From positions 2,436 to 66,435 of the forward strand of contig JAKSNJ010000007.1 of the NCBI GenBank assembly GCA_024399965.1: a stretch of DNA of 64,000 nt, written 5' to 3'. This DNA is from Paludibacteraceae bacterium (GTDB taxonomy: Bacteria; Bacteroidota; Bacteroidia; Bacteroidales; Paludibacteraceae). The notes beneath the pieces were generated by a model. It searched no databases and was not told where the DNA came from. It saw only the letters and a list, made by a program, of their open reading frames with translations. This document shows positions 5,724 to 61,533 of the stretch, in pieces. The position numbers and the translations under genes were made by a program. Every line of letters starts with the position of its first letter. The first letter of the stretch is position 1.

Positions 5724-5797
5724 TGATCCGGCCGGGATTCGAACCCGGGACCCACAGCTTAGAAGGCTGTTGCTCTATCCAACTGAGCTACCAGACC
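5724..5797 (-). tRNA. tRNA-Arg (anticodon UCU)
   Basis: The reverse complement GGTCTGG TA GCTC AGTTGGATA GAGC A ACAGC CTTCTAA GCTGT GGGTC CCGGG TTCGAAT CCCGG CCGGATC A folds as a 74-nt cloverleaf. The anticodon stem is perfect. GG is in the D loop and TTCGA in the T loop. CCA is not encoded. Confidence 0.92.
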
Positions 5798-5845: not shown

Positions 5846-5877
5846 CAAAGATACAAAAAAATTTTGAAATATACAAA
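5846..5877 (-). promoter_or_regulatory. Bacteroidota sigma-A promoter (TTTG-N20-TAtcTTTG) upstream of tRNA-Arg and rpoD
   Basis: Minus strand reads TTTGtatatttcaaaatttttttgTAtcTTTGcag. The -7 box is 5846..5853 and the -33 box is 5874..5877. Confidence 0.7.
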
Positions 5878-5883
5878 CTTTTT

Positions 5884-5918
5884 AAATGGAAAATGGAAAA
5901 ATGAGAATGGAGAATGGC
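5884..5918. repeat. Heptamer micro-array, 5 units (aaatgga aaatgga aaaatga gaatgga gaatggc)
   Basis: Direct reading. Intergenic. Confidence 0.85.
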
Positions 5919-5986: not shown

Positions 5987-6137
5987 TCACCCCCTCATCG
6001 TTCGTGTATCTCGAGACGAACGATATACGAACGATGAACGAACGATGAACGGAGAGTGAATTTTGGGTGCAAATAGGTTCTTTAGCGGCATTGATAACCA
6101 TCGACCATGTTATGTTGATGTTATGTTGCAAACAGGG
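5987..6137 (+). repeat. Intergenic repeat family, copy A (internally deleted relative to copies B and C)
   Basis: It shares tcatcgttcgtNtatctcgagacNaacgatatacgaacgatgaacgaacgNtgaacggagagtgaattttgggtg and ..atgttatgttgatgttatgttgcaaacagg with 43480..43710 and, inverted, 53135..53360. Confidence 0.9.
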
Positions 6138-6260
6138 AGAATGAGCGCTTTACTGGTTTGCCAACTTCCGACCCTCAAGAAAAAAAAGACAAATGTGGAA
6201 CAGCAGGTATATTAAAGGTAAGCAACAGGCAATAGAAGTACTATGCTGCCAAAGTAGAGA

Positions 6261-35756: not shown

Positions 35757-35794
35757 AAAATGTTATCTTTTTCAGAAAAAACGTATACATTTCA

Positions 35795-35873
35795 TCATTT
35801 AGCGACAAAGTGGCAGTTAAACACATCATTTTACAAAAGGATTTGCATATTCCAAAAATTCTTTGTATCTTTG
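35795..35873 (+). promoter_or_regulatory. topA promoter (TTTG 35842..35845, TAtcTTTG 35866..35873) with a conserved upstream module of about 50 bp
   Basis: The module catttagcgacaaagtggcagttaaacacatcattttacaaaagga precedes the -33 box. Near-identical modules are at 43717..43767 and, on the minus strand, 53078..53125. Confidence 0.7.
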
Positions 35874-35921
35874 CAGCCCGAAACGAGAAAACAGAGATAA
35901 GATAACAGATAATAAGGAGTA

Positions 35922-42290: not shown

Positions 42291-42304
42291 TGTTATTATT
42301 TTTT

Positions 42305-42346
42305 AATTCTCAATTCTCAATTCTCCATTCTCAATTCTCAATTCAC
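42305..42346. repeat. Heptamer micro-array, 6 units (aattctc x3, cattctc, aattctc, aattcac), filling the ansA-stop to pepD-start spacer
   Basis: Direct reading. The ansA TGA (42338..42340) lies inside the array. Confidence 0.92.
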
Positions 42347-43366
42347 CACTGTCATTTCTCCGCACAACGGTGTGCAAATCAGCCGCTTCACTTCCTCCGT
42401 GTCGCTGTATTCGCCCATCAGCACCATCATCTTGGTCAGCAGCGCTTCGGTGGTGATGTCATAACCGCTCAGCACTCCGGCTTTCATCAGGTTCAGACTG
42501 ACCTGATACAGCCCCATAGCCACTGTCCCTGTGTGACATTGTGTCTTGTTCACGATGACCAAACCGCGCTGTACGGCGTCCCGCAACGCCTCATACAGCC
42601 ACTCGTACGAGGGGGCATTGCCCGAGCCAAAGGTCTCTAATACCACGCCGCGCAGACCTTCTGTCTTCAAGATGGCTTGCACCACAGGTGGGGTGATGCC
42701 CGGAAATAGTTTCAGTACCGCCACATTGCGGTCTATTTTCAGGTGCGTCTGCAACGGCATTTGCGTCGTTTCCCGATGTATCAGATTCTCACGGTACGTG
42801 ATGTGTACGCCTACTTTGGCTAAGGTGGGGTAGTTGTATGAATCAAATGCCTCAAACTGCTCGCTGTTCATCTTGGTGGTGCGGTTACCGCGGAAGAGCC
42901 GTCCCTCGAAATATACGCACACTTCCGGCACCATTGCCTCGCCTTGCTCGTTCTTGGCTGCGGCTATCTCAATGGCTGTCAGCAGGTTCTCGCGTGCGTC
43001 GGAACGTAGTACGCCTATCGGCAATTGACTACCGGTCAGCACCACCGGCTTGCGCAGGTTGGTGAGCATAAAACTGAGTGCCGAAGCCGAATAGGACATG
43101 GTATCGGTGCCGTGCAGGATAACAAAACCGTCGTAGCGGTCGTAGTTGTCGGCAACTGTCTGCGCCATCTTGACCCAGTGGTCGGGGTTCATATCCGATG
43201 AGTCGATTAGTGGTTGGAAGGGTATCATATCTACTTCCACGGACGACGATACCAATTCCGGCACCATTGCCTTAAACACCTCTTTGGAAGCCGGACACAA
43301 CGCCCCGGTCTTGTGTTCTTGCACCATCGAAATGGTTCCACCCGTTAATATCAGCAGTACACGCAT
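42338..43366 (-). CDS. ansA: L-asparaginase, type I
   Basis: MRVLLILTGGTISM catalytic Thr motif and HGTDTM. Start set at the ATG at 43366. Confidence 0.9.
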   Translation of the reverse strand: MRVLLILTGGTISMVQEHKTGALCPASKEVFKAMVPELVSSSVEVDMIPFQPLIDSSDMNPDHWVKMAQTVADNYDRYDGFVILHGTDTMSYSASALSFMLTNLRKPVVLTGSQLPIGVLRSDARENLLTAIEIAAAKNEQGEAMVPEVCVYFEGRLFRGNRTTKMNSEQFEAFDSYNYPTLAKVGVHITYRENLIHRETTQMPLQTHLKIDRNVAVLKLFPGITPPVVQAILKTEGLRGVVLETFGSGNAPSYEWLYEALRDAVQRGLVIVNKTQCHTGTVAMGLYQVSLNLMKAGVLSGYDITTEALLTKMMVLMGEYSDTEEVKRLICTPLCGEMTVVN

Positions 43367-43400: not shown

Positions 43401-43432
43401 CAAATATACACTTTTTTTTTGATATATGCAAA
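43401..43432 (-). promoter_or_regulatory. Promoter of ansA (TTTG-N20-TAtaTTTG)
   Basis: Minus strand reads TTTGcatatatcaaaaaaaaaagtgTAtaTTTGcag. Confidence 0.7.
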
Positions 43433-43452: not shown

Positions 43453-43487
43453 GTGCATTGTGCATTGTCCACTGCCAACCACCACCC
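43453..43487 (+). repeat. Heptamer micro-array (gtgcatt gtgcatt gtccact gccaacc accaccc)
   Basis: Direct reading. The first about 20 nt recur at 49661..49688 inside a CDS. Confidence 0.8.
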
Positions 43488-43710
43488 CTCTTATCGTTCG
43501 TCTATCTCGAGACCAACGATATACGAACGATGAACGAACGGTGAACGGAGAGTGAATTTTGGGTGTTTTTTGGGGGCAAAAATTTTGGTTTTGGCAGTGA
43601 TTGAGTGGTCGCGATGTGGTCACGAAATACACAGGCGCTTTACTCGCCCCTTTTTTTAGCCGTATTGCCACCCACCGACTATGTTATGTTGATGTTATGT
43701 TGCAAACAGG
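43480..43710 (+). repeat. Intergenic repeat family, copy B (full length)
   Basis: Near-identical to the reverse complement of 53135..53360 over about 230 bp. It shares both ends with copy A. Confidence 0.92.
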
Positions 43711-43716
43711 TAAACA

Positions 43717-43795
43717 TCGTTCAGCCACAAAGTGGCGGTTAAACGCATCATTTTACAGAAAGATTTGCATATATCAAAAAAAATTTGTAACTTTG
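43717..43795 (+). promoter_or_regulatory. Conserved upstream module plus promoter (TTTG 43764..43767, TAacTTTG 43788..43795) of the PCMD-like gene
   Basis: cgttcagccacaaagtggcggttaaacgcatcattttacagaaagaTTTGcatatatcaaaaaaaatttgTAacTTTGcgc. Confidence 0.7.
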
Positions 43796-43814
43796 CGCGT
43801 TATTTATAAAATAG

Positions 43815-49141: not shown

Positions 49142-50913
49142 TGGCTATTGACCTGCCAATATCAAAAAGTATAGCGAACCGTCTATTGATGTTGCAAGCT
49201 ATTCACGGAGACCCCCTCTTGGAGGTCTCTTGTGATATGCCCGACGATGTCCGCCTCATTCATGACGTATTAAGCCACCTATCACCTACCTGCTACAACC
49301 TACCACCTACAACCTATCACCTCTCCAATTGTGGCACGGCTATGCGTTTCCTGACGGCTTATTGTGCGCAGTTAGAGGGCTGTGAAGTCGTCTTGGACGG
49401 AGATGAACGTATGCACCACCGGCCGATAGGGCAATTGGTAGATGCTCTCGTGCGCGCAGGGGCGCATATAGAATATATAGGTGAGCAGGGCTATCCGCCT
49501 TTGCGTATTATGGGGCGTGCGTTGCCTCGTACTGCGATTACATTGCTGCACCCGCAATCGTCACAATTTGTAAGCGCATTGCTCTTGATGGGCTTTCCTG
49601 TAACGACCGACTGCCGTTCACCGTATATCGCTATGACCCAACACATCATAGCCAACTACCGTGCATTGTGCATTGCCAACCGTCCATTGGAGAAGGATTG
49701 GTCAGCTGCGGCTTTTTGGTATGAGTACGTGGCGTTGCATGGTGGCGAATTGGAGTTACCGGGGTTGAGTGCGCATAGTGTACAGGGAGATAAGGTAGTG
49801 GCAGACCTGTTCCGTCCGTTGGGGGTGGCAACCACCTACACCGATACAGGTATTCGAATACGCCGAACGGGTAATGTGAATGGCTGCCCAAGAGTGGTGG
49901 ATTTTACGGACTGTCCGGACCTTTACCCGGCAGTGGCTATTACTTATAGGCAGTTGGCTAAACCGTTGATAGCACGTGGCACAGCGTCCCTGCGTATTAA
50001 GGAAAGCGACCGCATCAAGGCCGTTCAGCAGCAAACGACCTACCACGACCACCGTATAGCCATGGCCTTGCTGGCTGCCGACCTGCCTTGCGACGATAAG
50101 GAATGTGTTTCCAAGTCCTACCCTCGTTTTGTAGAACAACTGTCAACTGTCAACTCTCAATTCTCAACTGTCATTCCGCGCCGAGGAATTAACGACGAGG
50201 GCAAGGGTAAGAAATATGCCTTGCATAAACTCATTTCTGCTGCCACTACCGACTATGTGTGGCTGATGGACGATGATGTTCTCCCAGCCCCCATTCTCCA
50301 TTCTCCATTCTCCATTCTCCATTTTCCTGCCGACCTATATATTTTGCCCCTGAAGATGGTGGAGGGACGGTCTTTATTGGAGCGTTTGCAGGTGGCTGAA
50401 TATGCAGCCATTCAGGAGGTGACAATGCGTACTGCGAAGCGGGGCAAGGCAGTGATGTGCAGTGGGGCGAACTTAATTGTGCGGAGAGAAAGGTGGTTGG
50501 AGAGTTATGCTGATTTGCATACGGACATACCCAGTGGCGATGATATGTTTTTGTTGGAGTCGTTTCGCCGTCGCGGTTTGCAGATAAGTGTGATTGACCG
50601 CCCCGAATATACGGCTACGGTTACTGCTATACCTTCGTGGCGTGCGTTTTTTAGGCAACGTATGCGTTGGGCAGGCAAGGCGCCTCACTATACGGACCGT
50701 TATATCATTCGTTACGGGGCTGTTGTGCTGGGGGCTAATATGCTGCAACTGCTTTGTCCGCCGGTGTTGCTGGTGAAGTTCCCGTATGAATATCGTCTCA
50801 TCAAAAAAAGAGACCCGCAGGTCTCTTTTTGGATTGCTCTGTTGTTAGAGGTGTTATACCCCTATTACATGTTATTAGTCCTCTTGGGAGGGCTCTTCCG
50901 TCGCAGCTGGTAA
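49138..50913 (+). CDS. aroA: Single ORF joining a 3-phosphoshikimate 1-carboxyvinyltransferase-like (AroA) region (about aa 1-335) to the C-terminal two-thirds of a GT2 glycosyltransferase
   Basis: AroA-like: SKSIANRLL, NCGTAMRFL, RMHHRPIG.LVDAL, SSQFVSALLL, SPYIAMT, LRIKESDR, DHRIAMA, SKSYP.F. GT2-like: GKGKKYAL...., LMDDDV, QRMRWAGK, and TM helices. Heptamer arrays lie at 49275, 49661, 50138 (the junction) and 50292. Confidence 0.7.
   Translation: MMAIDLPISKSIANRLLMLQAIHGDPLLEVSCDMPDDVRLIHDVLSHLSPTCYNLPPTTYHLSNCGTAMRFLTAYCAQLEGCEVVLDGDERMHHRPIGQLVDALVRAGAHIEYIGEQGYPPLRIMGRALPRTAITLLHPQSSQFVSALLLMGFPVTTDCRSPYIAMTQHIIANYRALCIANRPLEKDWSAAAFWYEYVALHGGELELPGLSAHSVQGDKVVADLFRPLGVATTYTDTGIRIRRTGNVNGCPRVVDFTDCPDLYPAVAITYRQLAKPLIARGTASLRIKESDRIKAVQQQTTYHDHRIAMALLAADLPCDDKECVSKSYPRFVEQLSTVNSQFSTVIPRRGINDEGKGKKYALHKLISAATTDYVWLMDDDVLPAPILHSPFSILHFPADLYILPLKMVEGRSLLERLQVAEYAAIQEVTMRTAKRGKAVMCSGANLIVRRERWLESYADLHTDIPSGDDMFLLESFRRRGLQISVIDRPEYTATVTAIPSWRAFFRQRMRWAGKAPHYTDRYIIRYGAVVLGANMLQLLCPPVLLVKFPYEYRLIKKRDPQVSFWIALLLEVLYPYYMLLVLLGGLFRRSW
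49275..49323 (+). repeat. Heptamer micro-array, 7 units (ccaccta tcaccta cctgcta caaccta ccaccta caaccta tcacctc), in frame in the AroA-like region
   Basis: Direct reading. It encodes ..HLSPTCYNLPPTTYHLS.. immediately before the NCGTAMR motif. Confidence 0.9.
49661..49688 (+). repeat. Heptamer micro-array (gtgcatt gtgcatt gccaacc gtccatt), in frame in the AroA-like region
   Basis: Direct reading. It shares ccgtgcattgtgcattg with the intergenic array at 43451..43468. Confidence 0.8.
50138..50172 (+). repeat. Heptamer micro-array, 5 units (aactgtc aactgtc aactctc aattctc aactgtc), at the AroA/GT2 junction
   Basis: Direct reading. It encodes EQLSTVNSQFSTV. Confidence 0.9.
50292..50326 (+). repeat. 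Heptamer micro-array, 5 units (cattctc x4, cattttc), in frame in the GT2-like region
   Basis: Direct reading. It encodes PILHSPFSILHFP. Confidence 0.9.
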
Positions 50914-53021: not shown

Positions 53022-53045
53022 ATCTCGTCTGCCAATTTGGCAGTG

Positions 53046-53125
53046 CAAAAGTACACTTTTTTTTTGATATATGCAAATCTTTTTACAAAAAGATGGATTT
53101 AACCGCCATTTTGTGGCTAAATGTT
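53046..53125 (-). promoter_or_regulatory. Promoter (TTTG 53074..53077, TActTTTG 53046..53053) plus conserved upstream module of the sigma-54 activator gene
   Basis: Minus strand reads catttagccacaaaatggcggttaaatccatctttttgtaaaaagaTTTGcatatatcaaaaaaaaagtgTActTTTGcac. Confidence 0.7.
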
Positions 53126-53134
53126 ATGTTGCTC

Positions 53135-53360
53135 CCTGTTTGCAACATAACATCAACATAACATAGTCGATGGTTGGCAATACGGCTAAAAAGGGGCGAG
53201 TAAAGCGCGAGTGTATTTCGTGACCACATCGCGACCACTCAATCACTGCCAAAACCAAGGATTTTGCACCCCAAAAACACCCAAAATTCACCCTCCGTGT
53301 ATCGTTCGTTCATCGTTCGTATATCGTTGGTCTCGAGATAGACGAACGATGAGAGGGTGA
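53135..53360 (-). repeat. Intergenic repeat family, copy C (full length, inverted relative to A and B)
   Basis: The reverse complement aligns with 43480..43710 over about 230 bp with scattered substitutions. Confidence 0.92.
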
Positions 53361-53416: not shown

Positions 53417-53448
53417 TTTGTGTATTTCAAAAATTTTTAGTAACTTTG
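53417..53448 (+). promoter_or_regulatory. Promoter of the methyltransferase island (TTTG-N20-TAacTTTG)
   Basis: atTTGtgtatttcaaaaatttttagTAacTTTGcaa. Confidence 0.65.
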
Positions 53449-61210: not shown

Positions 61211-61533
61211 TTTTAGTTGGTTTTTTTAGGCAAAGTAGATATTTATCTATGTTTATGGCACTCTATCGGGCGGTTGGTGCTGGCACACAATAGACCGAGA
61301 GAGGGGCATAATAAGGGCACTGCCCTGCCTAAAAAAGTGCTTAGAGCACACCAGTATAATTTGCGTATTTTAATGAAAATATGTGTATCTTTCGGGGGAA
61401 TTGTGAAACAATTCGTGCCCTTGTGACTAAGAATTGCTTTTTCACAAGGCAGAATGCCGAAATATACAACAATCTGTCATCAGGCGGCTTGTCGAAGATA
61501 CAACAAAGAACTAACAAGGAACTAACACAAAAA

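Follow-up and report, generated by a model that had tools for sequence, protein, structure and literature searches.

An intergenic repeat of about 230 bp, present as copies A, B and C in a 64,000-nucleotide stretch of DNA (hereafter the window), raises the question of whether the element is a structured RNA gene, a mobile element, a vehicle for promoters, or some other kind of repeat DNA. The first three of these possibilities were put forward in an initial annotation of the same sequence. The window, which is our contig C42, is from an uncultured Paludibacteraceae bacterium (Bacteroidales) found in the horse gut. Its draft assembly comprises 1.66 Mb in 44 contigs with 47% G+C and is estimated to be 83% complete. 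There are 267 species genomes from the genus of this host in the comparison set used below.

Copies of the element in the window

The full-length element of about 230 bp is composed of three blocks, named L, M and R, which have discrete edges and are arranged in a limited set of orders (Table 1). Copies B and C carry all three blocks and match one another in inverted orientation, with 93% identity over 170 nt and 97% over a further 58 nt, in agreement with the near-identity originally described. Copy A likewise retains both ends (94% and 86% identity) and lacks about 90 bp from the middle. The hairpin reported in L is present, but its stable stem is formed by ATCGTTCGT-TATC with GATA-ACGAACGAT, wherein the first acgaacg is skipped. 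Similarly, the reported run of seven T residues is true of copy B, whereas copy C has only five. The predicted pairing of an R end with an adjoining gcaacataac encompasses 10 bp and is possible in copy C only.

Table 1. Positions of the L-M-R copies, their blocks and associated features within the window.
Feature	Position	Strand	Content or basis
Copy A, L+R form without M	5987-6139 (5987-6069 plus 6078-6139)	+	Repeat finder; one of about 10 L+R copies
Copy B, L+M+R	43486-43710	+	Window reading and repeat finder
Copy B, block L	43486-43565	+	Hairpin ATCGTTCGT..ACGAACGAT, then 11-bp tandem units ACGAACGATGA; Tandem Repeats Finder (TRF) period 11; 33 genome copies
Copy B, block M	43566-43655	+	45-bp core GGTTTTGGCAGTGATTGAGTGGTCGCGATGTGGTCACGAAATACAC including GTGGTC-N5-GTGGTC, then GGCGCTTTACTCGCCCC and T run; 21 genome copies
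Copy B, block R	43656-43710	+	Core of 2 x ATGTTATGTTG (43681-43702), then CAAACAGG; 40 genome copies
Copy C, full L+M+R, inverted relative to B	53135-53357	-	93% identity over 225 nt (BLAST)
L-side outward promoter of copy A; drives tRNA gene 5724-5797	5846-5877	-	Promoter pattern
L-side outward promoter of copy B; drives asparaginase gene	43401-43432	-	TTTG-N20-TAnnTTTG
L-side outward promoter of copy C; drives DNA methyltransferase gene	53417-53448	+	Promoter pattern
Module (TTAGCCACAAAGTGGCGGTTAAA...) and promoter of PCMD-like gene, joined to R end of copy B	43715-43796	+	Repeat finder, BLAST
Module and promoter of sigma-54 activator gene, joined to R end of copy C	53045-53121	-	Repeat finder
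Module and promoter alone, without L-M-R	35793-35874	+	84% identity to 43715-43796
Element X	61222-61461	-	Covariance model

A conserved module of about 50 bp followed by a promoter is indeed located beyond the R ends of copies B and C (77 nt at 84% identity). There are about 12 copies of this combination in the genome as judged by BLAST, and one of them stands alone in the window. Thus, the module and its promoter represent a separate cassette that is not part of the element. At the R ends of B and C this is an independent module, and the arrangement is unusual for the family. The module carries a GCCAC-AAA-GTGGC dyad directly 5′ of the -33 box (43715-43762, 53078-53121 and 35793-35840). It can be found on either side of L-M-R, and its orientation relative to its own promoter is constant.

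Copy B is flanked by genes for an asparaginase and a PCMD-domain protein, copy C by genes for a sigma-54 activator and a DNA methyltransferase, and copy A by a tRNA gene. Copies B and C, as 93% identical inverted repeats, bracket a 9.4-kb segment that extends from the PCMD-like gene through the sigma-54 activator gene, and both their R ends and their R-end promoters face into this segment. Recombination between B and C would invert the segment, and every gene would keep its own promoter.

Abundance and composition of the L-M-R family

There are 49 places in the draft genome that match copy B when it is used as a BLAST query, and about 66 clusters are found genome-wide when the query is widened to the flanks of this copy. 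A block-wise search recovers 33 L, 21 M and 40 R pieces. The initial annotation had counted three copies and had named the existence of only these three as grounds for refutation, but these searches place the family at more than 50 loci and therefore bear out the description of a dispersed, multi-copy, non-coding element. The R core is present as 37 exact 21-mers and as 39 copies when at most one mismatch is allowed, compared with none for a control pattern. Because 13 clusters are located within 300 bp of a contig end, the real number of clusters is expected to be higher.

All clusters are intergenic according to a crude map of open reading frames. About five have the L+M+R architecture, about 10 are L+R and about seven are M+R, and single blocks are also found. 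The M+R copies carry alternative left blocks that bear hairpins. Subfamilies have exact breakpoints in common. For example, about eight copies begin at one identical point inside L, and the three of these that are shown in full have an identical foreign left flank. The blocks are joined at short common words, such as TTTGCA and CAATAC(C/G)G, and the composites of 110-230 bp that result have been copied whole into dozens of unrelated gene gaps. The use of a few block types in mosaic combinations over so many intergenic clusters is a trait of REP/BIME elements.

Sub-repeats of 11 bp are found in L, M and R alike. The number of ACGAACGATGA units in L ranges from one to four among the copies, M contains units of the form GTGGTCGCGAT or GTGGTCACGAA, and R contains two units of ATGTTATGTTG. 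The 45-bp core of M is nearly invariant in an alignment of 19 copies, and the flanks of this core are variable. Hairpins are confined to L and one linker block, and the bricks from which the family is built are 11-bp direct repeats and unique sequence. No palindromic REP unit was found as the basic brick in the L-M-R copies. The succession of a leader, a tandem repeat and a tail, always in an intergenic location, is a trait of BrickBuilt-type elements.

With low-complexity filtering on, 33% of the intergenic DNA has a counterpart in one or more other intergenic loci, and for 20% there are three or more such loci. The spacer around copy B contains repeated blocks throughout its length. L-M-R is one abundant family in a genome-wide kit of non-coding mosaic intergenic blocks.

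Evaluation of L-M-R as an RNA

The proposal of a structured noncoding RNA gene is unsupported by each of the analyses conducted. Folding of the 233-nt element is no better than that of shuffled sequences on either of the two strands (z = +0.31 and -1.12). The covariance check that had been recommended was run on L and M and gave no compensatory pairs, with 0 of 22 in L (15-copy alignment) and 0 of 15 in M (16-copy alignment), and the consensus fold of M reaches only -8 kcal/mol. The recommended search for known RNA families was made with Rfam 15, wherein the window gave just two tRNAs at the gathering score and the element locus gave no match at E values up to 5. The linker hairpin, GGAACCGA..TCGGTTCC, exhibits one C-G to T-A double change between copies. 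Thus, L-M-R is neither an RNA gene nor protein-coding, and it works, if at all, at the DNA level.

There is one more specific possibility, which is that block M encodes a small RNA of about 70 nt in the + orientation, with a weak promoter-like start at the L/M junction and a predicted end at a GGCG..CGCC hairpin and T run. A TTTG box in copy B is located 18 nt 5′ of AAATTTTG at this junction, but no other part of M varies as much among the copies as the corresponding -7-like box. A hairpin and a T7 run follow the M core, but the stem of this candidate terminator has only 4 bp, and in several copies T7 gives way to T5 or to other sequence. Although the M core shows high conservation, this is accompanied by neither covariation nor a stable consensus fold nor a match in Rfam. 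We therefore regard a small RNA gene in block M as very improbable.

Element X and its covariation

In several copies of the repeat, the L end is followed, in the sense of the gene, by a promoter-like box, a unit of about 195 nt that we call element X, and a second, near-identical promoter that leads into the gene. The promoter after X is directed outward and has the sequence TTTGCGTATGCCAAATTTTTGTTGTATATTTGCA. There are about 25 full-length representatives of X in the genome as identified by a covariance model (for example G000:C44:70520-70714 and C1:51265-51458), and when 61 genomes of the genus were sampled, 18 gave matches to the model.

Element X is predicted to form multiple hairpins in which G-U pairs are rare (about 1%). 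An alignment of 27 copies drawn from five species has 93.5% of its cells paired, with double changes at 35 of the 39 pairs. The covariation score is 0.531, compared with 0.151 for shuffled and at most 0.113 for slid alignments, for an alignment that was fitted to its own model and thus favours structure. An Rfam search with ten X-holding loci gave no match. Given its strong covariation, X is also a positive control against which the lack of compensatory changes in L-M-R can be read. Element X could be a structured RNA, or it could be a promoter-carrying hairpin element that functions at the level of DNA. It is more intriguing than L-M-R and merits a separate study.

Distribution among species

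There are only 14 genomes with any match to the element among the 267 in the genus. A copy that includes both L and M is found beyond the host in only one of the 266 other genus genomes (G156). This copy is 95.7% identical to copy C, and its flanks have no counterpart in the host genome. Genes common to the host and G156 are 69-79% identical. As judged from these sequence identities, the high similarity of the two copies would mean either recent transfer or strong constraint.

The exact 22-mer of the R core is restricted to metagenome-assembled genomes (MAGs) of Paludibacteraceae and Bacteroidales from horse faeces and rumen, with the exception of one MAG of Eubacteriales. In these MAGs, it forms arrays of 2-5 units whose flanks are species-specific. 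At one orthologous junction, a unit of about 56 bp with the R core is present in G156 (L148, G156:C23) and is missing from the host (G000:C1:59820-60020). The genes on either side resemble a SpoU-type methyltransferase and a U32 peptidase, as read from their translations, and they overlap in the host. The asparaginase and PCMD-like genes that border copy B are not neighbours in G156, G186 or G044. An exact-protein look-up of the flanking proteins returned only the assembly itself and a single Logan contig of 2.9 kb, which breaks off within R.

Marks of mobility and mobilising enzymes

[quoted passage not shown] In favour of this view, L-M-R is a short non-coding element with many copies, its subfamilies recur with common breakpoints, it has a 96% identical copy in another species, contigs break at it, and MITE-like elements with internal tandem repeats have been described in Porphyromonas (PMC4596501). 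However, the L and R ends are not mutual inverted repeats, as no inverted similarity between them was detected by a repeat finder or in copy alignments, and there is no consistent target-site duplication among 11 complete composites. Two composites (G000:C20:5770-6000 and C23:40440-40740) are bordered by direct repeats, of 17 bp in one case (GTAAAATGATGTATTTA) and 12 bp in the other (TTTTTTCAGTTT), which lie at a distance of 10-24 bp from the element ends and may have been left by a copying process other than classical transposition.

Searches for Y1 transposase (PF01797), TnpB (PF07282), reverse transcriptase (PF00078) and rve integrase (PF00665) gave no matches in five genomes, all but one of which are drafts that are 83-90% complete, whereas control genomes were matched. 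These five are the host, three genomes in which the R core or the element is present (G156, G009 and G021), and one that has neither (G044). RAYT, which belongs to PF01797, is accordingly absent from the draft genome of the host. Because this draft is only an estimated 83% complete, a mobilising enzyme may be unassembled. Plasmid and phage collections searched by BLAST contain no match to L-M-R, a scan of a viral collection with the 22-mer returned one unrelated giant-virus contig only, and a metagenome scan with the M core returned 0 matches. Thus, the dispersed, multi-copy part of the earlier proposal stands, but it is accompanied by neither inverted ends nor target duplications nor an enzyme of these four families, and we consider a classical MITE to be distinctly unlikely.

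Position and orientation relative to promoters

Promoters near the element were sought with a relaxed Bacteroidota pattern, [TA]TTG-N18-21-TAnnTT[TG]G, within 160 bp of each side. An outward-facing promoter was identified at the L side in 35 of 51 clusters, whereas the R side has one in 4 of 48 (copies B and C included); the value for random intergenic points is 10.5%. Inward-facing promoters number one on the L side (51 clusters) and one on the R side (48 clusters). The idea of a promoter-delivering cassette is therefore partly right in that promoters adjoin the element, but no promoter was recognised within L-M-R itself, and the R-end promoter that is found with copies B and C is an exception to the L-side rule.

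In 41 of 51 clusters, transcription of the L-side gene leads away from the element. The copies occupy the gap from the stop codon of one gene to the promoter of the next, and the L end nearly always lies toward the promoter. In co-directional gaps, the R core is located on the sense strand in 20 of 22 cases when read as the CAACATAACAT strand, which is the reverse complement of the + orientation. About 10 copies are found between divergent genes and two between convergent genes. The 20-nt spacers of the L-side promoters are 65.6% alike, compared with 48.2 +/- 3.4% for other promoters, and 0 of 500 random sets reach this value. The 30 nucleotides 5′ of the L-side -33 boxes fall into about six recurring classes. 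Among copies that have an L-side spacer in common, identity falls at the -33 box, which speaks against the promoter being merely one portion of what is copied. It is nevertheless plausible that modules close to the promoter have spread to some extent together with the element.

Several simple causes for this arrangement were considered and rejected. A regulon is not a suitable explanation because the downstream genes, identified by reading their N-termini, are unrelated housekeeping genes that include pgk, proS, pheT, dnaA, greA, rpoD and ppdK. A replication-strand cause of the orientation bias was rejected because copies B and C have opposite orientations at a separation of only 9.5 kb. A location behind an upstream terminator was rejected as a general rule, given that a hairpin and T run precede the element in only seven of 27 co-directional gaps. 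By a simple criterion, no terminator of this type is recognisable in 16 of the 27 co-directional gaps that hold the element, and no canonical hairpin and T run was found inside the element in these gaps.

The exact 21-mer of the R core is also present, in frame, within what we read as the coding sequence of a MurF-type ligase (G000:C15:7580-7600), where it encodes ..QEHNINIT... This spot is kept in at least four species (L077, L095, L105 and L147), and its flanks are only about 79% identical.

The association with promoters raises the possibility that L-M-R is functional upstream regulatory DNA that is kept by selection, wherein the 11-bp repeats modulate the adjacent promoter. The repeats could be putative arrays for DNA-binding proteins, such as winged-helix regulators or nucleoid proteins, or they could be phased bendable DNA. 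The presence of direct repeats one helical turn apart in every block is consistent with such a role, as is the fixed position and orientation relative to promoters, but the distance from the L edge to the -33 box ranges from 6 to 125 bp, and the downstream genes have no function in common. Likewise, the 45-bp M core remains almost unchanged over 19 copies while its flanks vary, yet whole blocks are freely dropped at equivalent positions to leave L+R, M+R or R alone. The exact R core is present in several species amid differing flanks, and the identity of the element across species exceeds that of genes. However, most species of the genus are without the element, and the R core also resides in operon junctions and in the murF-like frame, where a promoter role is impossible. 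For these reasons we judge a selected regulatory function to be rather unlikely.

Genome-wide tandem arrays

Analysis of the whole genome with TRF reveals a strong excess of arrays with periods of 7 and 11, and also of 14, 21 and 22, whereas a locally shuffled genome gives a flat period spectrum. There are 67 heptamer and 25 undecamer arrays with at least 3.8 copies and a score of at least 50, and periods of 8, 9 and 10 are represented by at most three arrays each. Identical units of 7 or 11 nt recur over many loci, such as AGTTTAG, ATTCTCA, ACAATGC, CCGACGGCGAA and TCGACACTCAT. Some of these arrays fall inside long reading frames, and examples in the window are located at 42292-42360, 50139-50326 and 5884-5917. 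No strand bias relative to genes was found for the general 7- and 11-nt arrays. Thus, the orientation rule described above is specific to the L-M-R family.

Proposed nature and spread of L-M-R

We consider it likely that L-M-R is a mosaic repeat similar to REP/BIME, BOX or BrickBuilt elements, which exists at the level of DNA, is selfish or near-neutral, and is copied in the form of composites into the gaps between genes. It is best read as a new sequence family within a general class, bacterial repeat DNA, that is already familiar. Its most probable route of spread would be recombination or template switching anchored on the common words and on very uniform promoters. Mobilisation by an enzyme that is missing from the assembly would be an alternative route, and classical cut-and-paste transposition seems less likely. 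The main consequence of such copying would be to place DNA directly 5′ of many housekeeping promoters and to supply homology for rearrangement. The invariance of the M core, the cross-species exactness of the R core and the strict orientation could be caused equally by function or by recent copying.

A more ambitious proposal is that L-M-R, the GCCAC-N3-GTGGC module and element X are parts of one promoter-anchored copying system. Perhaps, in such a system, a common kit of cassettes would serve to build and replace the 5′ control regions of housekeeping genes, and the cassettes would terminate in the uniform Bacteroidota -33/-7 promoter or be directed to it. An arrangement of this kind would account for the fixed orientation, for the likeness of the promoters, and for 96% identity between element copies compared with about 75% between genes. 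We regard a unified system of this kind as unlikely.

L-M-R is also of practical importance. Together with its sister blocks, it constitutes a sizeable share of the intergenic DNA in a small gut-symbiont genome and breaks the assembly. The repeat therefore bears on draft quality and on rearrangement in a very species-rich genus from the herbivore gut. If it is true that the promoter-side rule reflects targeting or co-copying, then L-M-R would reveal a mechanism for the wholesale turnover of 5′ control regions in Bacteroidales. Otherwise, it would be another lineage-specific selfish repeat.

Comparison with known repeat systems

The STRR sequences of cyanobacteria were reportedly described by Mazel in 1990. 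Our host is likewise rich in recurrent 7- and 11-nt arrays, and the sub-repeats of the three blocks are of the 11-nt kind. Unlike STRR and other simple-repeat arrays, L-M-R is a composite of unique sequence and very short arrays, and it is orientation-biased. Genomes rich in heptanucleotide long simple-sequence repeats are already known (Mrazek 2007, as summarised in PMC4679880), and the present host, with its many 7- and 11-nt arrays, resembles them.

The BIME and REP elements of enterobacteria resemble L-M-R in that they are intergenic and non-coding, occur in tens of copies, form mosaics of blocks, contain hairpins and carry no internal transposase. However, L-M-R is without the palindromic REP unit of about 35 bp, RAYT was not found in the host draft, and 11-bp direct repeats serve as its bricks. 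We know of no rule for BIMEs that governs their position and orientation relative to promoters.

The BOX element of Streptococcus pneumoniae (boxA-boxB(n)-boxC) can be likened to L-M-R by design alone, because both consist of three blocks of which the middle one is optional or variable. Both are also intergenic and are without inverted ends of the transposon type or a known mobilising enzyme. BOX elements are predicted to form stable RNA structures, whereas L-M-R is not.

The Correia elements of Neisseria end in inverted repeats and are flanked by a TA target duplication, whereas L-M-R shows neither feature. The two are alike as small dispersed repeats that influence or create promoters adjacent to genes, and this effect is putative for L-M-R.

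In Porphyromonas gingivalis, the BrickBuilt MITE is bounded by small inverted repeats and contains a long minisatellite whose unit is 23 nt (PMC4596501). L-M-R lacks inverted ends and has only 2-4 units per sub-repeat. The two families also have several features in common. Both are found in Bacteroidales, are always intergenic at a distance of tens to hundreds of nucleotides from coding sequences, and occur in about 20 or more copies. Both have an internal tandem repeat (23 nt in BrickBuilt and 11 nt in L-M-R) that is located between a leader and a tail. Finally, both are associated with promoter activity, which in the case of L-M-R is suggested by the predicted adjacent promoters.
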